A stretch of DNA of 64,000 bases from an uncultured Gammaproteobacteria bacterium (GCA_964397195.1 CAYNGY010000001.1:134586-198585); one strand, 5' to 3'. Numbered from the stretch's first letter, positions 5,768-52,861 are shown. The notes: generated by a model not told the origin, from the letters alone. Numbers and translations: made by a program.

Positions 5768-5842
5768 TGGGGTGGCCAACGGGGATCGAACCCGTGATAA
5801 AGGCTCCACAAGCCTCTGTGTTACCACTACACCATGGCCACC
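5768..5842 (-). tRNA. tRNA-His (anticodon GTG), with encoded G-1 and CCA
   Basis: The reverse complement folds as G-1 + GTGGCCA/TGGCCAC acceptor, discriminator C73 pairing with G-1, D-stem GTGT/ACAC, anticodon loop TTGTGGA, T-arm ACGGG-TTCGATC-CCCGT and a 3' CCACCCCA end like E. coli tRNA-His. Confidence 0.9.
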
Positions 5843-5934
5843 ATGGTCGGAATGAAGTGTCTCAGCAGTGTTCCCGCGTTGTGAGGACGGAAAAACAGGC
5901 AACTTCAGCGAGAATATACGGGGAAATACTCACG

Positions 5935-5963
5935 TTGTCAATAGAATAGCAGCCTGTTAGGAT
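5935..5963 (+). promoter_or_regulatory. Candidate sigma70-type promoter for tRNA-Arg(TCT)
   Basis: ttgtca (5935-5940), 17-nt spacer, taggat (5958-5963); about 60 nt upstream of the tRNA. Confidence 0.3.
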
Positions 5964-6026
5964 GCAAAGGACGCCCGAAATGTCTGTGCGTCAGGCTCGA
6001 CGCATGTCCCGCCCGATTCGCCTCGT

Positions 6027-6101
6027 GGCCCCGTAGCACAACGGATAGTGCAGGGGACTTCTAAGCCCAAGATGTAGGTTCGACTCCTACCGGGGCCACC
6101 A
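6027..6101 (+). tRNA. tRNA-Arg (anticodon TCT), CCA encoded; atypical anticodon stem
   Basis: Acceptor GGCCCCG/CGGGGCC, D-arm GCAC-AACGGATA-GTGC, anticodon loop CTTCTAA (identical to the E. coli argU loop), T-arm GTAGG-TTCGACT-CCTAC, discriminator A. The anticodon stem GGGGA/GCCCA has only 3 central G-C pairs, with 27:43 G.A and 31:39 A.G mismatches. Confidence 0.75.
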
Positions 6102-7565: not shown

Positions 7566-9062
7566 TTACTTTCGCTTGAAAACTGTGGCCGGGCCTTGTT
7601 CGAACACGAGGATCCACTCGGGAGCAGTGCGCAGATACGTTTGGTAGGCTGCGACCTGTTCGGCAGTGTAGGGCCAGGCTGGTGCACGCGGGTCGAGGGC
7701 GATGTATGTGGTATCCTCATGAAGATTTGGAAAATGGTAGAGGGTAGTGCGGTGTGTTAGGTGCGGCGCAAAGGCATCTTGGGCGCTGACCACGGCATCG
7801 TTCGGGATAGATGCGACCAGGGTATTCCATGTCGCCACGGGGCGCGTGCGGAGTTGCTGGTCATGAAAAAAAGCGAGCGGTGTGACTCGGATGTAGACAA
7901 TCGATACGGCACCGACGCAAAAAACAGCGACACCATAGGCCAGACCGCGCGACCATTTCCATTTTGAAAAGTCAGCCAGGGCTAATAATGTCGCGATGAG
8001 GTAGACCGCCATCATCCCCACCTGATAGTGGAACTGAAACATCCACAAGCCGGTGTTCGTCGTCCAGAAACGTTCGCCTAACGTCAGCAGGGTCATCGGC
8101 CACATCGTCCAGGTCAAAAGTGGGAAATACAGAAACGAGCCCACTGTGTATTTTGTGGTCTCAATCTTTTCCGGTGCATCGCGGAGGAGGGTGAACGTGC
8201 GTTGTGGATGCAGGACAATATTTTTAACGACCGTCGCCGGGGTGTCGCCGATCTGATCATACTGATTCAGGTACACGTAACCCTGTCCATCGGACAAAGC
8301 GGGAATGATGAGTCGAGTAATCAGAAAAAAAGAAATCAAGCCAACGCCGAGCGTCGCGAGACCATGTCGGACGTCGATAGTTTTCCAATGCCACGGCCGT
8401 GCCCGCAATGCAATCGTCAGGCCGAGCAGGGCGGCATAGATGGCCATCGACTCTTTGGTCAGAATAAGTCCAACGACTGCCAACCAATACCATCGCCATT
8501 GTTTTCCGACGGCGAAGATGAGCATCAGCAACATGAACGCCGGTGCAAACGCGATCTCGTGAAAATCAAAGTTGATCGCGGCGAGGATGCCGGGGTGGAC
8601 CGCGGCCGCCAGACTGATCACGGCGACAGCCCAGGTTGGCAGACCAAGGCGACGCCCTAGGATGGTGCCGAGCGGAAAAATCAGACTCAGGAGACAGGCT
8701 TGGGCGACAAGGAGCACGATCGGTGATGACCAGATCCAGTAGAGCGGGACGAGGAGGAGAATAATTGGGTGAAAATGATCACCAAAAAGATTACCGATTC
8801 CGCGAATGGTGCTGGCTGGGGCGGAAAAGTGGCTGGCGTGCCAGAGCGCTTGGTCAAAAATGCCGAGGTCGAACGCGTGGGTTTCGAAATGAAGGTGTCG
8901 CCAGATCGCAATCCAGCTCAATCCGACGGCGAGCAGGACGGTGACTGTCCAAACAAGGGGCCAAAACCACCGCGGCGTCCGTTGCCAGCGTCGCCCGAAA
9001 TAGCTGAGCGTCACCGCTAAGAGTAACGCCCCGAGTCCGGTCCAAAATACCTCCGCGCTCAT
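7566..9062 (-). CDS. Large polytopic membrane protein (12 or more TM helices), DUF2079-like / possible GT-C-type glycosyltransferase; identity uncertain
   Basis: 498 aa, very hydrophobic, with the motif HAFDLGIFDQALWH near the N-terminus. Its start overlaps the recombinase stop by 4 nt. Confidence 0.75.
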   Translation of the reverse strand: MSAEVFWTGLGALLLAVTLSYFGRRWQRTPRWFWPLVWTVTVLLAVGLSWIAIWRHLHFETHAFDLGIFDQALWHASHFSAPASTIRGIGNLFGDHFHPIILLLVPLYWIWSSPIVLLVAQACLLSLIFPLGTILGRRLGLPTWAVAVISLAAAVHPGILAAINFDFHEIAFAPAFMLLMLIFAVGKQWRWYWLAVVGLILTKESMAIYAALLGLTIALRARPWHWKTIDVRHGLATLGVGLISFFLITRLIIPALSDGQGYVYLNQYDQIGDTPATVVKNIVLHPQRTFTLLRDAPEKIETTKYTVGSFLYFPLLTWTMWPMTLLTLGERFWTTNTGLWMFQFHYQVGMMAVYLIATLLALADFSKWKWSRGLAYGVAVFCVGAVSIVYIRVTPLAFFHDQQLRTRPVATWNTLVASIPNDAVVSAQDAFAPHLTHRTTLYHFPNLHEDTTYIALDPRAPAWPYTAEQVAAYQTYLRTAPEWILVFEQGPATVFKRK

Positions 9063-10021
9063 GACTCGTCCTTCTCGTCGGGGCGGGTCGTGCCGTGGAA
9101 CGCTTGATGGATTTCCTTCAACTGCTTATTTGTGACGTGGGTGTAGACCTGCGTTGTCTGAATAGATGAGTGGCCGAGCATGGCCTGGACACTCCGAATG
9201 TCCGCACCGTTTTGAAGAAGGTCGGTCGCATACGAGTGCCGCAATGTGTGCGGGGTGACGCGTTTCGTTAAACCGGCCGCTTTTGCATATTGATCAACGA
9301 GGCGCTCGATCGACCGAGGCGTGAGTGGGGTCACCTCGTTCGAACGCCGGCCGGCGCGATCGAGCCGAATAAACATGGCCTGATGATCATCGGTGCGGCG
9401 CTCAAGAAATTCCCCGAGCCACTTCTTCGCCATCGGCGAGAGGAAAACAACGCGGAGCTTGTCGCCTTTACCGCGGATGGTGAACTCGTCTTTTTTGAGA
9501 TTGATGTTATCTCGTTTCAGGCTGGCCAGTTCAGAGACGCGCAGGCCGGTCGAGAAGAGTAGTTCCAAGATCGCTTTGTCGCGTAACTCCAACAGTGATT
9601 GCCCATGCGCGATCGGCGCGTTCAAAAACCGCTGAAGATCGTCGCCGTCGAGGACGCTGACCTGGCGCTCGGCCACTTTCGCTAATTCGATTTTTTCCGG
9701 CGCCAATGTTTTTACGTCCTGCTTCTGTAAATATTTGAGGAATGAGCGCAGGGCGATGAGATAATAATTTTGGGTGGACTTCTTTAACGGCTGACCGCGG
9801 TGACTAATCTGACGATTCAGCCAGAGCCGAAAGTCTCGAACATCATCGAGCGTTAAGGCGCTGGGCGAGCTAACCTTACTGATCGCTAAGAAGCGGGTCA
9901 GGTACAGATCATAATTCCGGCGGGTCAACAGGCTCTTGCCACGCTCGACTTCAATATAGGTCAGGAATCGATCTTTCCAGCGGGTGAATTCATTGATGCT
10001 CATGTCAATATTGTACGACAC
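9059..10021 (-). CDS. Tyrosine site-specific recombinase, XerC/XerD-like
   Basis: N-terminal core-binding domain (FLTYIEVERGKSLLTRRNYDLYLTRF). C-terminal catalytic box LTPHTLRHSYATDLLQNGADIRSVQAMLGHSSIQTTQVYTHV with the R..HxxR..Y residues. Confidence 0.9.
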   Translation of the reverse strand: MSYNIDMSINEFTRWKDRFLTYIEVERGKSLLTRRNYDLYLTRFLAISKVSSPSALTLDDVRDFRLWLNRQISHRGQPLKKSTQNYYLIALRSFLKYLQKQDVKTLAPEKIELAKVAERQVSVLDGDDLQRFLNAPIAHGQSLLELRDKAILELLFSTGLRVSELASLKRDNINLKKDEFTIRGKGDKLRVVFLSPMAKKWLGEFLERRTDDHQAMFIRLDRAGRRSNEVTPLTPRSIERLVDQYAKAAGLTKRVTPHTLRHSYATDLLQNGADIRSVQAMLGHSSIQTTQVYTHVTNKQLKEIHQAFHGTTRPDEKDES

Positions 10022-15093: not shown

Positions 15094-15864
15094 GTGTATA
15101 CTGCGGCTATGGAGTATCGCGTCCCGAATCAACGAGGCCTCGAACTTGATGTCTTAGTCACCGGCGAGCCAACCGGAATCACCGTGCTCTGCGTCCATGG
15201 CTTTGGCACAGGCAAGCATGAGAACGGAGATCTCCTGCGGGATGTGGCGACGGAATTGCGGGAAACCGCGCAAGTCGTGCAATTTGATTTTTCGGGCTAC
15301 GGACAAAGTCAGGGCCACGATGTCGACGCCAGTATTGAGACCATGACCGCCGATGTGAATGCCATGGTCGCCTGGATAAAAGCGCAGTTCCCGGGACGGG
15401 CCATGATTCTCGCGCACTCGATGGGCTGTTTTGCGGTCGCCAACGCGGCGCCGGTGGGCATTGAACGATCTATCTTTAGTGGCATTCCGCGACCCAATAC
15501 CGACGAATCCATCCAAGCACTCCAACGGCGCCTCCTCCAGCGCGGCGGGACGCTCAATGTGGACGGAGTGAGCATCTACCCGCGCAAGGATGGACAGCGC
15601 CAGCGTCTCGGCCGACAGTACTGGTCATCGTTGGCCGCGCTCGACCCGCTTGGACTTGTTCAAAGCTACGCGCGGACTACCGAGCTCACCATCATTAAAC
15701 CGCTCGAGGACGAAATCATTGGTGGATCTGAGATTACCTCGGCCTATCGCCGCCTACCCGGCGTGACGATGGTCGAACTACACGGCGATCACGGTTTCAC
15801 GAAACCGAAGGATCGTCGTGCCTACCTTCGGAAGGTCCACGAGCTCATCGCCGAACGAGGATAA
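15094..15864 (+). CDS. Alpha/beta-fold hydrolase
   Basis: VLCVHGFGTG oxyanion region, nucleophile elbow LAHSMGC, and C-terminal His in ELHGDHGF. Confidence 0.8.
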   Translation: MYTAAMEYRVPNQRGLELDVLVTGEPTGITVLCVHGFGTGKHENGDLLRDVATELRETAQVVQFDFSGYGQSQGHDVDASIETMTADVNAMVAWIKAQFPGRAMILAHSMGCFAVANAAPVGIERSIFSGIPRPNTDESIQALQRRLLQRGGTLNVDGVSIYPRKDGQRQRLGRQYWSSLAALDPLGLVQSYARTTELTIIKPLEDEIIGGSEITSAYRRLPGVTMVELHGDHGFTKPKDRRAYLRKVHELIAERG

Positions 15865-20397: not shown

Positions 20398-20427
20398 TTG
20401 CCTAAGGGGCGAAAATATTGGTATGCT
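20398..20427 (+). promoter_or_regulatory. Candidate promoter of leuS, giving a short leader without a Shine-Dalgarno sequence
   Basis: ttgcct (20398-20403), 18-nt spacer, tatgct (20422-20427); about 20 nt before the leuS ATG. Confidence 0.35.
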
Positions 20428-20447
20428 CATACTCTTACCGATACGAT

Positions 20448-23279
20448 ATGGCCTCGAATTACGATCATCGCGACATTGAAGCGAAGTGGCAGCAACGCTG
20501 GACGGACGAACGAATTTTTTCTGCTGCTGAAAAACCCGGATCGAAAAAAGCCTACGTGCTCGACATGTTTCCGTATCCCTCAGGTGATGGGCTCCACGTC
20601 GGCCATCCGGAAGGGTATACCGCGACCGATATTTACTCGCGCTTCTTGCGGATGAACAACGTGTCGGTGCTCCACCCGATGGGCTGGGACGCCTTTGGCT
20701 TGCCGGCCGAGAACTACGCGATTAAGATGGGCGTCCACCCGGCTGAGGTGACCAACAAGAATATTGCCAACTTCAAGCGGCAAATCCAAAGTCTCGGATT
20801 TTCGTACGACTGGGATCGCGAGGTCAACACCACCGACCCGGCATACTACAAGTGGACCCAGTGGATTTCTCTTCAACTCTTCAAGCGTGGCCTGGCCTAC
20901 GAAAAAGAGTCGGCGATTTGGTGGTGTCCGAAAGATAAGACCGGATTAGCGAATGAAGAGGTGGTGAACGGGAAGTGCGATCGCTGTGGGACGACCGTGG
21001 AAAAGAAAATGCTGAAGCAGTGGATGTTAAAGATTACGGCCTACGCCGACCGACTGCTTGATGGGTTAGAGAAACTCGATTGGCCGGAGTCGATCAAGGC
21101 TCTCCAACGGAACTGGATTGGGAAGAGCGAGGGGGCGGAAGTCGACTTCATGATCGGTGACCAGAAAGTAACGGTATTCACCACTCGTCCGGACACGCTC
21201 TTCGGCGCGACGTATCTCGTGTTATCACCGGAACATGAACTTGTGCCGCAAATCACGGCGAAGGAGCAGAAAAAAGCTGTCGAGAAATATGTAAAATCGG
21301 TGGCGGCGAAATCTGATCTCGAGCGCACCTCGCTCGAGAAAGAAAAAACCGGTGTCTTCACCGGCGCGTATGCGATGAATCCGGTCAACAATGAAAAGAT
21401 CCCAGTGTGGATCGCGGACTACGTGCTGTCGAGTTATGGCACGGGAGCGATTATGGCCGTCCCGGCGCATGATGAGCGGGACTGGGAATTTGCGAAGAAG
21501 TTTGAACTACCGATTCGTCAGGTGATTGCACCATTCTATAAAAACACCACCGACCTCGCCGTGAAAGCAGGCGCGCCGGTGGTTCGCCGCCCGGTAGCCT
21601 ATGGAATAATCCATCGAAAACAAGACGACCATTACTTGTGTCTCCGCTGGAAAGAGCACGGCTGGGGCTCTTTCGTGACTGGCGGTATTGAAGCTAGCGA
21701 AAAACCAGTTGATGCAGCCAAGCGCGAGATTCTTGAAGAAGCCGGATACACACATGTGAAACACGTGTCCACCATCGATTGGCAGGTGCACACCGAATTT
21801 TTTGCCGCACACAAACAAGAGAACCGATATGGGATAGCGACTGGTGAGATATTCGAGTTGATTGACGATGAGAAAGTACCTATCTCTAGCGAAGAACAGG
21901 ACAAGCATGAGCTAGTATGGGTACCGGCGAACAAAGTGCGCGATTTCGTGACACACGGGAACGCGAAGTACATCTGGGATTGTTATCGAACCCCAAGTGC
22001 GTTCGTTGGCGAAGGGGTAGCCGTGAACTCGGGCGAAGTTAATGGCATGAATAGCGCCGACGCTCAAACTAAGCTTATTGAGAGTCTCTCTCAACAAGGA
22101 AAAGCGTCAGCCAAAACCCAATACAAACTTCGCGACTGGGTCTTTTCCCGTCAGCGCTACTGGGGCGAGCCGATCCCGTTGGTGCATTGTCAGAAATGTG
22201 GTGTCGTCGCCGTACCTGAAAACGAATTACCACTCAAGCTTCCCGACGTCGAAAAATATGAACCAACCGGGACTGGTGAATCGCCACTGGCTGGCATCAC
22301 CGAGTGGGTGAATACGAGCTGTCCGCAGTGCGGCGGTCCGGCGAAGCGCGAAACAAACACCATGCCGCAATGGGCTGGGTCGTGCTGGTACTATCTGCGG
22401 TATCTCGATCCGAAAAATGAAACCGCCCTAGCGAGTGCGGACGCCATGAAAACATGGCTCCCGGTCGATATGTATGTCGGTGGCGCCGAACACGCGGTGC
22501 TTCATCTCCTCTACGCCCGGTTCTGGCACAAGGTCTTGTTCGATGCGGGCGTCATCCCGGCCGAAGTCGGGGACGAGCCGTTCATGAAGTTAAAAAATCA
22601 GGGTTTGATTCTCGGTCCTGACGGCGAGAAGATGTCGAAGTCGCGGGGAAACGTCATTAATCCCGACGAATTAGTTGAGAAGTTCGGCGCTGACACGTTT
22701 CGGATGTATGAAATGTTCATGGGCCCGTTCGAAGACGCGAAACCGTGGGATACGAATGGGATGATTGGGGTGCGCCGATTCTTGGATAAAGTGTGGCGGG
22801 CCGCCGAGCGAGTTGTAGAAATACCGCCGAACGATCGATGGCACCGGTACGCAAAATCAATCACCGAATCAATCCCCCAGTTCCGACTCAACACCTGCGT
22901 CAGCGATTTGATGAAGTGGGTCAATGAATTCGGTCCGGGCGAAGTTTCGAAAGACGAATTTCAGGCGTTCTTAAAACTCCTAGCACCGTTCGCGCCGCAC
23001 ATCGCCGAAGAACTCTGGTCGCGATTAGGACATACCACATTGCTCATCACAGAGTCATGGCCGAGCTTTGATGTGCAAAAAATCACCGACGCCACTGCGA
23101 CGATCGTTATCCAAGTCATGGGGAAACTCCGCGGCACCATTTCCATGCCAGCGGGAACCGATCAAGCCACGGCTATCGCGGCAGCGAAAGCCGAACCGAA
23201 CGTGGCAAAATTTTTAACCAGGGAACCGAAGAAAACTATCTTCGTCAAAGACAAGCTGATAAATTTCGTGGTCTCATGA
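20448..23279 (+). CDS. leuS: Leucyl-tRNA synthetase carrying a Nudix hydrolase domain inserted in the editing (CP1) region
   Basis: HVGH-type signature PYPSGDGLHVGHPEGY. Editing-domain start TTRPDTLFGATYLVLSPEH and GTGAIMAVPAHDERDWEFAKKFELPI. KMSKS as EKMSKSRGN. ATG 20448 is used; TTG 20418 was rejected. A complete Nudix box GGIEASEKPVDAAKREILEEAGY sits about 21.68-21.75 kb, inside an insertion of about 155 aa that E. coli LeuS lacks. Confidence 0.95.
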   Translation: MASNYDHRDIEAKWQQRWTDERIFSAAEKPGSKKAYVLDMFPYPSGDGLHVGHPEGYTATDIYSRFLRMNNVSVLHPMGWDAFGLPAENYAIKMGVHPAEVTNKNIANFKRQIQSLGFSYDWDREVNTTDPAYYKWTQWISLQLFKRGLAYEKESAIWWCPKDKTGLANEEVVNGKCDRCGTTVEKKMLKQWMLKITAYADRLLDGLEKLDWPESIKALQRNWIGKSEGAEVDFMIGDQKVTVFTTRPDTLFGATYLVLSPEHELVPQITAKEQKKAVEKYVKSVAAKSDLERTSLEKEKTGVFTGAYAMNPVNNEKIPVWIADYVLSSYGTGAIMAVPAHDERDWEFAKKFELPIRQVIAPFYKNTTDLAVKAGAPVVRRPVAYGIIHRKQDDHYLCLRWKEHGWGSFVTGGIEASEKPVDAAKREILEEAGYTHVKHVSTIDWQVHTEFFAAHKQENRYGIATGEIFELIDDEKVPISSEEQDKHELVWVPANKVRDFVTHGNAKYIWDCYRTPSAFVGEGVAVNSGEVNGMNSADAQTKLIESLSQQGKASAKTQYKLRDWVFSRQRYWGEPIPLVHCQKCGVVAVPENELPLKLPDVEKYEPTGTGESPLAGITEWVNTSCPQCGGPAKRETNTMPQWAGSCWYYLRYLDPKNETALASADAMKTWLPVDMYVGGAEHAVLHLLYARFWHKVLFDAGVIPAEVGDEPFMKLKNQGLILGPDGEKMSKSRGNVINPDELVEKFGADTFRMYEMFMGPFEDAKPWDTNGMIGVRRFLDKVWRAAERVVEIPPNDRWHRYAKSITESIPQFRLNTCVSDLMKWVNEFGPGEVSKDEFQAFLKLLAPFAPHIAEELWSRLGHTTLLITESWPSFDVQKITDATATIVIQVMGKLRGTISMPAGTDQATAIAAAKAEPNVAKFLTREPKKTIFVKDKLINFVVS

Positions 23280-23836
23280 TTTCACTCCGCCAAGCCGCTC
23301 GAGCCTTACTCGCCGGTGAGATCATCGCTTTTCCGACGGAGTCGTTCTGGGCCCTTGGGGTCTTAGCCACTAAATCCGATGCAATCGATCGGCTCTTTCG
23401 GGCAAAGTACCGTGAAAAAAATAAGCCGATTGCCCTGATTGCCGCTAGCCGCGCCCAAGTCGAAGCGTTTTTTCATCTCTCCGCGACCGAAAAAGTCCTC
23501 GCTGACCGATTCTGGCCGGGATCGCTAACTATTCTTCTTAAGCCGAAAGCAAGCATTGCCGCCAAATCGCTTGGTGCACGGTATATTGGGGTCCGCGTTC
23601 CGGCCCACGCCGCTTCCCGGAAGCTCGCCGCCATCGCTGGCGCACCGATCACGGCCACGAGCGCGAACGAAAGCGGCCAACCAGCAACGAAATCCGGCCG
23701 CGTCGTCGCCCGCGCCTTTCCCGACATTGAGCGGCTCAGCGGTGCCTGCGGTCGTCAGCGCCTCCCATCGACCATTGTCCGTTTCCGCGGGCGGCACATG
23801 ACGCTTATCCGTCAGGGTGCCGTGCCGATGATCTGA
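23276..23836 (+). CDS. tsaC: L-threonylcarbamoyladenylate synthase (YrdC/TsaC/Sua5 family)
   Basis: IIAFPTESFWALGVLA...KNKPIALIAAS...GVRVPAH...ITATSANESGQPA; 4-nt overlap with the leuS stop. Confidence 0.8.
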   Translation: MISLRQAARALLAGEIIAFPTESFWALGVLATKSDAIDRLFRAKYREKNKPIALIAASRAQVEAFFHLSATEKVLADRFWPGSLTILLKPKASIAAKSLGARYIGVRVPAHAASRKLAAIAGAPITATSANESGQPATKSGRVVARAFPDIERLSGACGRQRLPSTIVRFRGRHMTLIRQGAVPMI

Positions 23837-49707: not shown

Positions 49708-50220
49708 ATGGCCACCCAGTTTACTGTTCCACAATTCACGAATGAGCCGGATAAGATCATCGGTCCGATCGTTGTTCGGCAATTCATCATCCTGCTCGTC
49801 GGTGCCGGGCTGGTGGTTGGGGCCTATCAGCTTTTTTATCGACTGATAAACTCGTCGGTTGGGTTTCTTTTCTCGGCGGTAATCATTTTAAGTCTGACGG
49901 CGGCTTTCGCCTTCATTCGAGTTAACGGTCGCCCGTTTCATCTTTTTATCTTGAATGTGATTGAGTCGTTACGCGTGCCGTCGATGCGTCTCTGGAACAA
50001 CATGGCAGCCGAGCGAATTCAGTACCGCCGTGAACCGCCGCCGCCGGCTCCGCCGCCGACAAAAGCCCCGCTCGTGCAAACGAATTTGGCCCGCCTAGCT
50101 ATGTTAGTGGATACCGGCGGAGCGTTCCACGAAGATGAGGATATCCTCTACTGGGGTGAGACATTACCGAAAGCTACTCGCCAAGCCGAGGTGCTTACCA
50201 ATCAGGTTGATCGCGAATAA
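49708..50220 (+). CDS. PrgI/VirB3-like small two-TM membrane protein
   Basis: 170 aa. Two adjacent hydrophobic helices (IVVRQFIILLVGAGLVVGAY / VGFLFSAVIILSLTAAFAFI). It sits immediately upstream of the VirB4 gene, as in Gram-positive T4SS. Confidence 0.55.
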   Translation: MATQFTVPQFTNEPDKIIGPIVVRQFIILLVGAGLVVGAYQLFYRLINSSVGFLFSAVIILSLTAAFAFIRVNGRPFHLFILNVIESLRVPSMRLWNNMAAERIQYRREPPPPAPPPTKAPLVQTNLARLAMLVDTGGAFHEDEDILYWGETLPKATRQAEVLTNQVDRE

Positions 50221-50226
50221 TTCCGT

Positions 50227-50952
50227 ATGGCCACACCGTCACAAAAAACGCCCCCACGACCGAAAAAAGTTGCGCCTTCAACGCAGCAGTATTTGGATAT
50301 CATGGAAATTCGCGACGATGCTGTAGTGATGAAGAACGGCGGATTAGTAGCGGTGCTCCTCGTGTCGTCAATCAATTTCTCGCTCAAATCAGAAGAAGAA
50401 CAAGAAGCGGTGATTGGGGCGTACGTCTCGTTCCTGAATACCATCGATTTTCCGCTTCAAATCGTCATCCAGTCCCGTCGCCTCGATATTGATGCCTATC
50501 TTGAAGTCCTCAAAGGTGTCGAGAAACAACAAACGAACGAACTGCTCAAGACGCAGACACAGGATTATCGTCGCTTTGTGAACGAGCTCGTGCAGATGAA
50601 CGCGATTATGTCGAAGCGTTTCTATGTGGTCATTCCTTTTTCACCAAAAGTAGATCGTCCGGGCAAATTCTTTAGCCGCCTGCTCGATGCCTTTGCGCCG
50701 ACGGAAACTATTCATTTGAAACAGAAGCAGTTTGAAAAATACCGCCTTGAATTATTTAAGCGGGTCGATAACGTCATGAACGCGCTATCGGCGGCCGGAC
50801 TCCAGTCACAGCCCTTACGGACGCAGGAACTGATCGAGCTGTACTACAATTCCTATAATCCCGAAACTGCCCGTCAAGAAAAACTCGACGACGTCCGAAA
50901 ATTGTCTTTAGAGGAAGTGTCATCTATCAAGCCCGACAATGCCCGAAGTTAA
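50227..50952 (+). CDS. VirB4/TrsE N-terminal domain encoded as a separate ORF
   Basis: YLDIMEIRDDAVVMKNGGLVAVLLVSSINFSLKSEEEQEAVIGAYVSFLNTIDFPLQIVIQ resembles the N-terminal (CagE/TrbE) region of VirB4. Its stop overlaps the ATG of the ATPase ORF by 14 nt, a +1 frame change. Confidence 0.6.
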   Translation: MATPSQKTPPRPKKVAPSTQQYLDIMEIRDDAVVMKNGGLVAVLLVSSINFSLKSEEEQEAVIGAYVSFLNTIDFPLQIVIQSRRLDIDAYLEVLKGVEKQQTNELLKTQTQDYRRFVNELVQMNAIMSKRFYVVIPFSPKVDRPGKFFSRLLDAFAPTETIHLKQKQFEKYRLELFKRVDNVMNALSAAGLQSQPLRTQELIELYYNSYNPETARQEKLDDVRKLSLEEVSSIKPDNARS

Positions 50953-52861
50953 TCTCTTCCGCCCAAACGAATTCCGTAGCGCCCCCCAAGCGAGTGGTGG
51001 TGGCACGACCCCAAAACTCCCCGAGGACGAGCGGGAGCTCCTTGAGGCTGAGCGCATCTACCGCCAAGGCGTCGTTCGAGAACTCGATCTTATCGCCCCG
51101 GCCGCCTTTAAGGTTGACCCGAGATTTCTGATGCTCAACGGTCGCTACGTTCGGACGCTCTTCGTTATTTCCTATCCGCGATACATCTCCGTTGGCTGGT
51201 TCGCGCCAATCATTAATTATAGCGCTCCGTTAGATGTCTCGATGTTCTTCTACCCGATTCCCTCGGACATCATCCTGAGGCAGTTAAAAAATAAGGTCGG
51301 CGCCCTCGAAGCCCAGCTGATTACTGACCAGGAAAAAGGCGCCCCGCGTGATCCGATGCGTGAAACAGCGCTTCGTGATATCGAAAAACTCCGCGACGAT
51401 TTAACGCAGGGGACCGAGAAGTATTTCCAGTTCGCCCTTTATGTTTCCTTTTACGCGGATTCGCTCAAAGAACTGGACGAACTGACAAACCGTATGGAGG
51501 CCCTCTTCGGCTCTCGTCTCGTGTACTCAAAGCGCTCCTTTTTCCAGTCCGAGCAGGGATTCACCTCAACCATGCCGCTTGGCCTTGATCGGCTTCAGGT
51601 CGCGTTCAACATGAACTCGTCCCCAATCGCCTCAAGTTTTCCGTTTATGTCGGCGGACCTGTCGAGTGATAATGGGATTTTGTACGGTATCAACCGTCAT
51701 AATAACTCGCTTATTCTCTTCGACCGTTTCTCCCTGCCAAACCCAAACTATACCGTCTTCGCTACCGCCGGTGCCGGTAAGTCATTCGCCGTCAAGTTAG
51801 AAATTATTCGGTCGATGATGTTCGGGACTGATATTATCGTCGTCGATCCGGAGCATGAATATAAATATCTATCTGATGCGGTCGGCGGGACGTATATTAA
51901 TATCTCCCTGAACTCCGATACGAAGATTAATCCCTTTGATCTCCCGCGCGGGATTGGCGGCGATGAAACCCCGGCCGATATTATTCGGTCCGCGGTTATT
52001 ACGCTCAAGTCCATGTTGCGCCTGATGCTGGGCGACGTGACTCATGAGGAAGATTCTATCCTCGATCGGGCGCTCCTCGAAACCTACGCCAAGAAAGATA
52101 TTACGCCGGATGCGGACTTAGCGAATATCGAGCCGCCCGTCATGTCAGATTTTCAAGAAGTATTGAGCGGTATGACCGGCGCCGAGAGTCTAGCGGAACG
52201 GTTGAAAAAATATACCGAAGGTACGTTCTCGGGGCTTTTTAACAGTCGGACGAACATTGAGCTGAACAATCAACTCGTCGTCTTCTCGGTCCGCGATCTT
52301 GAGGATGAACTTCGCCCAATCGGGATTTCGATTATTATTTCTTATATTTGGAATATCGCTCGTTCGCAGCTCAAGCGCCGCATTCTCGTCATTGATGAAG
52401 CGTGGTGGTTAATGCAACATGAAGACTCGGCAAAATTCGTTTACGGCCTCGTAAAACGATCGCGGAAATATTATCTGGGCGTTACGACGATTACCCAAGA
52501 CGTGAATGATTTCTTGCTCAGTCCATATGGTCAGGCCATCATCAATAACTCAGCACTTCGGCTGCTGATGAAACAATCGCCGGCGGCGATTGAGATTGTT
52601 ACCAAAACCTTCCTCCTGACCCAACAAGAACGGTATTTGTTACTTGAGGCGGGCGTCGGCGAGGGAATCTTCTTCGCCGGTACAAAACATGCCTACATGC
52701 AAGTCGTCGCCTCGCCGACAGAAAATCAGATCGTCACGACGAATCCAGAAGAGGTACTTCGCTTGGAAGAAGCGAAGCGCGAATTTGAAGACTCAATTGC
52801 CTCTGGGACGGCGACGAATGCCGGAGCGGCCGTCACCAACCCCGAAGATTTAACATCATAA
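50939..52861 (+). CDS. VirB4/TraC/TrsE-family type IV secretion ATPase (C-terminal ATPase portion)
   Basis: Walker A FATAGAGKSFAVK at about 51.77 kb, Walker B ILVIDEAWWLM at about 52.39 kb, and characteristic YISVGWF..., LDRLQVAFNMNS and GVTTITQD blocks. Confidence 0.9.
   Translation: MPEVNLFRPNEFRSAPQASGGGTTPKLPEDERELLEAERIYRQGVVRELDLIAPAAFKVDPRFLMLNGRYVRTLFVISYPRYISVGWFAPIINYSAPLDVSMFFYPIPSDIILRQLKNKVGALEAQLITDQEKGAPRDPMRETALRDIEKLRDDLTQGTEKYFQFALYVSFYADSLKELDELTNRMEALFGSRLVYSKRSFFQSEQGFTSTMPLGLDRLQVAFNMNSSPIASSFPFMSADLSSDNGILYGINRHNNSLILFDRFSLPNPNYTVFATAGAGKSFAVKLEIIRSMMFGTDIIVVDPEHEYKYLSDAVGGTYINISLNSDTKINPFDLPRGIGGDETPADIIRSAVITLKSMLRLMLGDVTHEEDSILDRALLETYAKKDITPDADLANIEPPVMSDFQEVLSGMTGAESLAERLKKYTEGTFSGLFNSRTNIELNNQLVVFSVRDLEDELRPIGISIIISYIWNIARSQLKRRILVIDEAWWLMQHEDSAKFVYGLVKRSRKYYLGVTTITQDVNDFLLSPYGQAIINNSALRLLMKQSPAAIEIVTKTFLLTQQERYLLLEAGVGEGIFFAGTKHAYMQVVASPTENQIVTTNPEEVLRLEEAKREFEDSIASGTATNAGAAVTNPEDLTS

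Follow-up and report, generated by a model that had tools for sequence, protein, structure and literature searches.

The DNA examined here, a stretch of 64,000 nucleotides (the window) filed under an uncultured Gammaproteobacteria bacterium (GCA_964397195.1 CAYNGY010000001.1:134586-198585), contains a leuS gene whose product, a leucyl-tRNA synthetase (LeuRS), carries a complete Nudix domain within its editing domain, CP1. The gene lies in an open reading frame (ORF) that runs from 20418 to 23279 (+), and the ATG at 20448 was taken as the start. Its parts are listed below, numbered from the first letter of the window; 1h3n is the LeuRS of T. thermophilus, and HMM stands for hidden Markov model.

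20448..23279, + strand: leuS, bacterial-type leucyl-tRNA synthetase with an embedded Nudix domain, 943 amino acids (aa), stop codon TGA
20595..20606, + strand: HIGH motif of the synthetic site (HVGH, aa 50-53), read directly; invariant in 22 fused homologues
21180..21197, + strand: threonine-rich motif of the editing site, TTRPDT (aa 245-250), read directly
21468..21482, + strand: HDxRD motif of the editing site (HDERD), with the conserved catalytic Asp D345, read directly
21528..21998, + strand: insert (aa 361-517) in place of the variable CP1 loop I4b, from the alignment to 1h3n and the core-HMM insert map
21588..21965, + strand: domain of Nudix fold (aa 381-506), from Pfam PF00293
21681..21749, + strand: Nudix box GGIEASEKPVDAAKREILEEAGY (aa 412-434), with catalytic E427, E430, and E431, read directly
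21810..21827, + strand: subfamily signature HKxENR (aa 455-460); K456 and R460 are invariant in the family alignment
22614..22643, + strand: GPDGE linker and KMSKS loop (KMSKS aa 728-732), read directly

The synthetase and the site of the insert

The encoded protein scores 1057 bits on the equivalog model TIGR00396 (leuS_bact), above its cut-off of 548, and aligns end to end with 1h3n (E = 2.7e-223). Pfam recognizes tRNA-synt_1, the LeuRS editing domain PF13603 (225.6 bits), and Anticodon_1, and one database protein, P0001, encoded on a 477-kb contig of an NCBI assembly, is 100% identical to it. Besides TTRPDT, as defined in PMC3747510, and HDxRD, the GTG editing motif is present, and the conservation of all three is the same whether LeuRS carry an insert at the I4b site (76 proteins) or have no insert at all (54). 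TTRPDT is kept in 75/76 of the former and 54/54 of the latter, and the H, D, R, and D of HDxRD are each found in 76/76 of the insert-bearing proteins. The leucine-specific domain is missing, with T. thermophilus residues 580-636 left unmatched in the alignment. This domain, which precedes KMSKS, is found in most, not all, LeuRS, and hence is not strictly defining. In the LeuRS of M. mobile, its place is taken by the tetrapeptide GKDG (PMC3643597), of which the GPDGE of the window protein is reminiscent. The window gene encodes a functional-looking LeuRS, unmistakably of the bacterial type, with the synthetic and editing motifs intact. The relatives of this LeuRS are labelled Patescibacteria, Buchananbacteria, or Kerfeldbacteria, and, going by these labels, we infer that the host belongs to the Patescibacteria, or candidate phyla radiation (CPR). 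The gene ends in TGA as a stop codon, so the organism uses the standard code.

The insert of 157 residues is in frame and stands where T. thermophilus LeuRS has 13 residues (363-375); on either side, window residues 4-360 pair with 3-362 and 518-723 with 376-579. It lies after core-HMM state 367 and starts 16 residues past the editing Asp D345. An earlier note on this DNA had estimated about 155 extra residues and had placed them at 21533-21999, which is within 1-5 nt of the boundaries found here but out of frame by one base. At this point bacterial LeuRS have I4b, a long, nonconserved loop of CP1 that connects helices alpha2 and alpha3 next to the editing pocket; its eukaryal and archaeal counterpart, I4ae, covers the pocket opening (PMC3747510). 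Both are variable and occupy the same place in CP1 as the insert, after the helix with the catalytic Asp (PMC3747510). However, I4b is a loop and I4ae a helix, whereas the window LeuRS has instead a 145-residue enzyme domain with its own active site.

The insert alone scores 47.8 bits on the Pfam NUDIX model PF00293 (cut-off 21.1), covering profile positions 3-129 of 134; this was the check that the earlier note had proposed for its Nudix assignment. The box GGIEASEKPVDAAKREILEEAGY conforms to the pattern G-x5-E-x7-R-E-U-x-E-E-x-G-U and has the catalytic glutamates; the same note had read a Nudix box here. The last position is Y rather than an aliphatic residue, as it is in 129/152 family members. 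The strict pattern occurs only once in the six frames of the window, against 0.0 occurrences expected from 200 shuffles. An AlphaFold2 (AF2) model of the insert, based on an alignment of 27 homologous inserts, has the Nudix order of strands and helices at a predicted local distance difference test score (pLDDT) of 94.4 and a predicted template modelling score (pTM) of 0.87, so the insert is predicted to form the alpha/beta/alpha sandwich of the Nudix fold. A model of the full-length protein, made with 21 fused homologues, gave pLDDT 84 and pTM 0.70, with CP1, the Nudix block, and both junctions at pLDDT 85-94 (85-92 for the junctions). These values for the junctions and the two domains indicate that CP1 is undisrupted and that the linkers are short and ordered. 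The Pfam match, the AF2 model, and the 1h3n alignment thus agree with the original reading of a complete Nudix domain, with all catalytic residues, lying in CP1 between two conserved editing-domain blocks. We regard it as almost certain that a complete Nudix domain replaces the surface loop I4b at the rim of the editing pocket in a functional-looking LeuRS. I4b was probably used simply for its tolerance of insertions.

What might a second hydrolase do beside the editing pocket? Since the synthetic and editing motifs are intact, the Nudix domain is an added second hydrolytic module and no replacement for editing; the idea that it compensates for lost editing was rejected on the same grounds. 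It could still be an auxiliary proofreading or self-defence device, which hydrolyses misactivated aminoacyl-adenylates or antibiotics that are directed at LeuRS and mimic the adenylate. The location within the editing domain, beside the pocket, is in keeping with such a role, as is the insertion of diverse hydrolases (Nudix and alpha/beta-hydrolase) in LeuRS of other lineages. However, Nudix enzymes cleave pyrophosphate bonds, and an aminoacyl-AMP has none. The normal editing site is fully conserved, and the same Nudix domain occurs in a prolyl-tRNA synthetase (ProRS) outside any editing domain and also as a free protein. Hydrolysis of aminoacyl-adenylates is thus without support and chemically awkward, and we consider a proofreading or self-defence role very improbable.

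An intein or other self-splicing mobile insertion was considered and rejected: NUDIX is the only Pfam hit in the insert, Hint or endonuclease features are absent from it, and the junctions, RQVI/APFYKN and YRTPS/AFVGEG (the slash marks the boundary), lack intein junction residues. The composition of the insert is likewise unexceptional. Its G+C content (GC) is 0.508, compared with 0.537 for the rest of leuS and 0.552 +/- 0.035 for the window, and at third codon positions (GC3) it is 0.548 vs 0.644. The impression that the insert is richer in AT than its surroundings is therefore weakly borne out, but 10% of windows of the same size have a GC as low or lower. A recent capture or a foreign origin of the DNA was rejected; the earlier note had seen a hint of the former in the AT-richness, but the composition is within normal variation, and the insert is found at the same site in widely diverged Patescibacteria, with a mean identity of only 35% between the Nudix copies. 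Two ORFs of 133 and 113 aa run antisense to the Nudix-coding segment (21507-21973, - strand) and are most likely spurious.

The Nudix subfamily and its distribution

A word-indexed homology search with the insert alone gave no matches, whereas an exhaustive HMMER search of 1.84 billion representatives does find homologues, 326 proteins at E<=1e-3. The ten best matches are all LeuRS, some with two or three Nudix copies and some with a serine-hydrolase domain. Among the matches listed, a LeuRS core is present in 96/149 other representatives, and the remainder include genuine stand-alone proteins of about 160-180 aa. The sequences share the signature YLCLxWKxxxWxxFxxGG before the box and F(F/Y)AxHKxENR, FEL, and HExxW after it, by which the Nudix domain can be assigned to a small, distinct subfamily. 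In an alignment of 28 sequences, R19, K94, R98, and W129 of the insert are invariant (K94 and R98 are K456 and R460 of the protein). Several invariant basic residues suggest a substrate that bears a polyphosphate.

The conservation of the box was assessed in 152 LeuRS-embedded copies, taken from representatives no more than 50% identical to each other. G1 and G2 are kept in 151 and 149 copies, E16, E19, and E20 in 151, 149, and 152, and G22 in 149. R15 is found in 129/152, and E7 in 125, with Q in 16 more and D in 9. The nearly invariant catalytic Glu triad, at a mean domain identity of 35%, argues that the Nudix domain is under selection as an enzyme, and from its sequence it is apparently an active pyrophosphatase. 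The Nudix fold could in principle serve instead as a noncatalytic structural or regulatory module that binds a nucleotide signal or tRNA, like the C-terminal domain of MutY, CFIm25, or mitoribosomal L46. However, the triad and the box glycines remain near-invariant in the 152 copies while the rest of the domain falls to 35% identity, and the noncatalytic Nudix folds known to us have lost the box. We give this explanation almost no credence.

The earlier note had proposed a search for orthologous fusions, and these are common: a Nudix domain is present at exactly core-HMM state 367 in 44 of the best 120 LeuRS matches. A scan of GTDB species representatives for the subfamily motifs found it inside LeuRS at the same site in 21/21 loci, although the scan was seeded with those motifs, and hence biased to close relatives, so this is not a census. 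The titles of these loci include Liptonbacteria, Paceibacteria, a Parcubacteria group bacterium, and a Gracilibacteria genome, in which the LeuRS-Nudix gene (locus L020, 2849-5722) contains 43 in-frame TGA codons and is readable only with genetic code 25. The fused proteins are already in public databases, labelled 'leucine--tRNA ligase'.

The distribution of the fusion is also patchy. In 68 LeuRS-Nudix proteins, the mean pairwise identity is 54% for the LeuRS core and 35% for the Nudix domain, and no other Nudix is more than about 51% identical to the insert of the window. The closest LeuRS relatives of the window protein, P0002 and P0003, with 79% core identity, have no insert. Core and Nudix distances are modestly correlated (Mantel r 0.33, which 0/2000 permutations reach). 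Stand-alone and embedded copies are interleaved, and the nearest neighbour of 24/29 stand-alone copies is one embedded in LeuRS. A single ancient insertion followed by purely vertical descent is unsupported in view of the modest Mantel r and this interleaving; repeated gain, loss, or fission of the insert seems more likely. As far as these comparisons tell, the LeuRS-Nudix combination is an old association rather than a recent capture.

Synthetase partners and candidate functions

The genomic neighbourhoods of the stand-alone members connect the subfamily with further synthetases. Threonyl-, arginyl-, and isoleucyl-tRNA synthetases are written ThrRS, ArgRS, and IleRS.

P0160: on three contigs, just ahead of a leuS that lacks the insert, with 2 nt between its end and the ATG
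P0152: followed after 2 nt by the gene of a LeuRS with a Nudix insert of its own
P0162: 13 nt after argS, upstream of an IleRS-like gene with a His_Phos_1 insert
P0254: followed after 49 nt by a ThrRS-type gene (tRNA_SAD)
P0161: two genes ahead of a ProRS that carries the same Nudix as an insert
P0129: 4 nt after fpg/mutM
P0134, P0139, and P0212: no synthetase nearby

Synthetase genes are thus close by in 5/9 contexts, immediately adjacent in four and two genes off in one; the sample is nine contexts only, two of which share synteny. Synthetase genes make up roughly 2-3% of a CPR genome, so four immediate adjacencies in nine are very unlikely to arise by chance. The loci with P0129, a protein of 170 aa, are L022-L025 (e.g. 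L022, 4016-5513), and they also have RuvA and PolA nearby.

The ProRS found near P0161 is of the archaeal type (ProRS-C_1), and its Nudix domain lies between the anticodon-binding and C-terminal domains (L034, 2762-4693). This ProRS-Nudix clade comprises five clusters from independent samples (P0232 and P0270-P0273), which retain ExxEE and reach 152-195 bits against the subfamily model. Its nearest insert-free relatives are labelled Nanoarchaeota or Woesearchaeota, and the association of Nudix with synthetases may therefore extend to DPANN archaea. The subfamily is thus fused to LeuRS, at two sites and in one to three copies, and to ProRS. Fusion to two unrelated synthetase classes, together with adjacency to more, points to a functional link with aminoacylation in general, by Rosetta-stone and operon evidence. 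One Nudix subfamily is thus associated, family-wide, with several aminoacyl-tRNA synthetases in two independent ways, by fusion and by operon-like adjacency.

The earlier note was not aware of any description of the fusion, and a full-text literature search, which covered few subscription journals, turned up no account of LeuRS-Nudix or of any other synthetase-Nudix fusion. An NCBIfam scan of the window LeuRS likewise turned up no curated model for the combination. What is new is the pairing of a known enzyme with a fold that is also known, a combination that is conserved, apparently functional, and not yet described. Additional hydrolytic or regulatory modules associated with synthetases, fused or encoded as separate genes, include the free-standing trans-editing and accessory factors AlaX, YbaK/ProX, and DTD, and the appended domains of eukaryotic synthetases. 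They act on aminoacyl-tRNA esters or mediate protein interactions, and none is a Nudix pyrophosphatase. The IleRS with an embedded N-acetyltransferase (NCBIfam NF040702, 'ileS_w_GNAT'), which database curators have already recognized, is likewise a synthetase of class Ia that houses an enzyme domain unrelated to it, but both the synthetase and the inserted enzyme are different, and the comparison is by the name of the model only. NadM-Nudix (2qjt; PMC7824862), an NMN adenylyltransferase joined to a Nudix ADP-ribose pyrophosphatase, is an enzyme with a HIGH motif and nucleotidyltransferase fold that makes an adenylylated product and is fused to a Nudix domain acting on a related nucleotide. It differs in being an end-to-end fusion rather than a loop insertion, with a Nudix of another subfamily in the NAD/ADP-ribose pathway.

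The Nudix domain is not the only module inserted in the LeuRS of CPR bacteria. At one hot spot, after core state 236 (the entry to CP1), we found the alpha/beta serine hydrolase PF06821, the Ham1/ITPase domain PF01725, the ASCH domain PF04266, or one to two Nudix copies. At another, after core state 440, there is a conserved domain that spans about 130 aa and carries the motif GxKTIETRALNPEEPDRYFG (e.g. P0013 aa 620-750 and P0016 aa 772-902). It has no Pfam hit and gives a weak full-length profile match to P. horikoshii PH0355 (2z0t; E 0.0025); we presume that it may be ASCH/PUA-like. The LeuRS with several modules reach 1554 aa (P0047), and further carriers include P0013, P0035, and P0031. 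One of the LeuRS that bears Ham1 is misnamed 'non-canonical purine NTP pyrophosphatase' at NCBI because of the inserted domain. These hot spots show how essential enzymes in streamlined genomes gain new modules. A comparable gene lies on the contig of P0162: the IleRS-like gene at L032 4594-7498 (tRNA-synt_1, Anticodon_1, DUF5915) has a match to the histidine-phosphatase domain His_Phos_1 inside it, and so is a further synthetase in which a domain of hydrolase type is embedded. The contig also encodes a dUTPase, one more Nudix, and a zeta-toxin-like protein.

The nearest relatives of the subfamily among characterized Nudix enzymes, namely RppH, the hydrolases of diadenosine polyphosphates, and DIPP, give a weak indication of its substrate. 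In a profile search of the PDB, its neighbours were enzymes of polyphosphate chains: AvrM14 (decapping), the Ap4A (diadenosine tetraphosphate) hydrolases of lupin and Aquifex, NudB, DIPP, and Dcp2. Among 28 subfamily members, NCBIfam models for RppH matched 27 and 24, those for NudB 23, and YtkD 17, whereas MutT models were matched at E<=1e-3 by just 9/28 and 3/28. The scores remain below the curated cut-offs in every case: at best 25.5 bits vs 116 for RppH (PRK00714 models), 23.6 vs 148 and 16 vs 97.9 for MutT (PRK10776 and TIGR00586), and 37.5 vs 103 for NudB (PRK09438, dihydroneopterin triphosphate diphosphatase). The most consistent neighbours in sequence and structure are thus RppH (NudH/YgdP/IalA) and the other hydrolases of diadenosine polyphosphates, Ap(n)A (Aquifex 3i7u, lupin 1f3y, T. 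thermophilus Ndx1, M. tuberculosis Rv2985/MutT1, and human NUDT2), which share the Nudix fold and the canonical box. The substrates of these enzymes are products of synthetase side reactions (PMC7705103). Unlike RppH, the window subfamily falls below the curated thresholds and has motifs of its own (W..F.GG, F.A.HK.ENR, FEL, and HE..W). Furthermore, RppH and the Ap(n)A hydrolases are free-standing, while the window subfamily is embedded in synthetases or encoded beside them.

We tentatively suggest that the Nudix domain is an RppH/Ap(n)A-hydrolase-like module that clears and recycles the Ap4A-type by-products of the synthetase at their source. The synthetase would generate dinucleoside polyphosphates whenever the aminoacyl-adenylate meets ATP. 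The Nudix domain, acting like the RppH/NudH and Ap(n)A-hydrolase branch by a Mg2+-dependent attack on the polyphosphate chain, would then cleave Ap4A and its relatives asymmetrically, giving ATP and AMP, where they arise. As a result, adenine nucleotides would be recycled, and alarmone and cap precursors would be kept low in organisms that scavenge nucleotides. Formation of Ap4A by synthetases from aminoacyl-AMP and ATP, and its asymmetric cleavage by RppH/NudH, MutT1, and NUDT2, are described in PMC7705103 and PMC13627108. Of the substrates considered, an Ap4A-type compound seems to us the best compatible with the evidence, and it is our best guess.

Several observations weigh against it. The closest stand-alone relative, P0129, sits after fpg/mutM with no synthetase adjoining, and the other neighbours include dUTPase, nucleoside and nucleotide kinases, and phosphoribosyl pyrophosphate (PRPP) synthetase. 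Ham1/ITPase domains are co-inserted in other LeuRS. These contexts of fpg, dUTPase, kinases, and Ham1 fit sanitation of the nucleotide pool at least as well. Ap4A arises in the synthetic site and not in CP1, so the proposal draws no mechanistic support from the site of the insertion. Among the neighbours is ArgRS, which is not known to make Ap4A. Finally, the stand-alone contexts sampled number only the nine given above, with the two syntenic ones among them.

The same contexts are the basis for an alternative in which the Nudix domain is a house-cleaning NTP pyrophosphohydrolase (MutT/NudB/NudI-like) for oxidised or noncanonical (d)NTPs. LeuRS would then be a mere scaffold, tolerant of insertions and constitutively expressed, and the hydrolase would be uncoupled from aminoacylation. 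On four contigs, the gene for P0129 follows fpg/mutM at a distance of 4 nt, a pairing like that of the GO system; a dUTPase and another Nudix are near P0162, and nucleotide kinases or PRPP synthetase are near P0139 and P0161. Ham1/ITPase, a classical house-cleaning enzyme, is found in other CPR LeuRS, sometimes alongside Nudix. NudB is the top single NCBIfam match of the insert, and MutT1, NudI, and NudB are among its Foldseek matches. The patchy presence of the insert, with P0002 and P0003 lacking it at 79% identity, also fits an accessory, separable function. However, house-cleaning leaves unexplained the recurrence of the subfamily with at least four synthetases, including the unrelated class II ProRS, and the gene that abuts an insert-free leuS. 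Furthermore, MutT models match 9/28 members, compared with 27/28 for RppH. We regard this role as unlikely.

The RppH-like matches are equally the basis for a second alternative, in which the domain is an RNA 5'-end pyrophosphohydrolase or decapping enzyme (RppH/YtkD/Dcp2-like) that removes a 5'-triphosphate or a nucleotide cap from the bound tRNA. The 5' end of tRNA adjoins its 3' end, which reaches into the editing pocket of CP1, and the insert is at the rim of that pocket, where the acceptor end binds (PMC3747510). RppH and YtkD (BsRppH) are the curated families matched most consistently, and AvrM14, Dcp2, and RppH are among the best neighbours in sequence and structure. Furthermore, the partner synthetases all share tRNA as their other ligand, and ASCH-type domains, putatively RNA-binding, are co-inserted in other LeuRS. 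Against this, nothing indicates that the tRNAs of these organisms retain 5'-triphosphates or caps, and the insert of ProRS, between the anticodon-binding and C-terminal domains, has a different geometry. Action on the tRNA 5' end thus appears rather improbable.

Taking the fusions and the Ap4A proposal together, a broader scheme can be put forward for ultra-small prokaryotes that scavenge nucleotides, CPR bacteria and probably DPANN archaea. In it, the Nudix subfamily would be a dedicated partner of synthetases, destroying a by-product such as Ap4A or processing the tRNA 5' end on the synthetase. It would form part of a wider, undescribed system in which CPR LeuRS serves as a platform: fixed hot spots around its editing domain would hold as many as four accessory modules (Nudix, alpha/beta serine hydrolase, Ham1/ITPase, and ASCH-like), most of them hydrolases. 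As a joint claim this is doubtful, and we offer it as a possibility. If the Nudix domain acts on a product of the synthetase, LeuRS-Nudix would be the first case of a single polypeptide that both produces an Ap4A-type alarmone and breaks it down. This would be relevant to the long-standing question of whether Ap4A serves as a signal or arises as a by-product, and it would show nucleotide economy in organisms unable to make nucleotides. Should tRNA ends be its target, the domain would represent a new step of tRNA maturation or quality control. The pattern of fusions and operons gives a Nudix subfamily of unknown function a concrete partner. Synthetases are among the most studied enzymes, and we found no description of catalytic accessory domains within the editing domain of a bacterial one.

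Neighbouring genes in the window

Directly downstream of leuS lies one further gene.

23276..23836, + strand: Sua5/YciO/YrdC-family (TsaC-like) gene, PF01300 136 bits; its ATG overlaps the leuS stop codon by 4 nt (ATGA)

The 4-nt overlap suggests that the two genes are probably cotranscribed. A TsaC-like homologue follows leuS in 3/21 related loci (L003, L010, and L013). TsaC, too, produces an adenylate, threonylcarbamoyl-AMP. Upstream of leuS, a search for a regulatory RNA gave no Rfam match.

An alpha/beta-hydrolase is encoded elsewhere in the window (15094-15861) and was found to be unrelated to those inserted in other LeuRS. Beyond the TsaC-like gene, four consecutive giant ORFs of 1882, 1419, 1824, and 1668 aa occupy 26838-47158 (+). 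They have almost no Pfam matches, just faint ones to fn3, BNR-like, and purple-acid-phosphatase-N domains, and are probably cell-surface proteins of a kind common in CPR genomes. Directly downstream, at 49708-52861 (+), are genes for a PrgI-family protein and a TraG/VirB4-like P-loop ATPase (PF19044, 102 bits), which are a type IV secretion or conjugation-like module. On the other side of leuS, a tyrosine recombinase (Phage_integrase, 146 bits) is encoded at 9062-10021 (-), about 3 kb from a divergent pair of tRNA-His and tRNA-Arg(TCT) genes (5768-6101); it may be a XerC/D protein or else indicate an integrated element.

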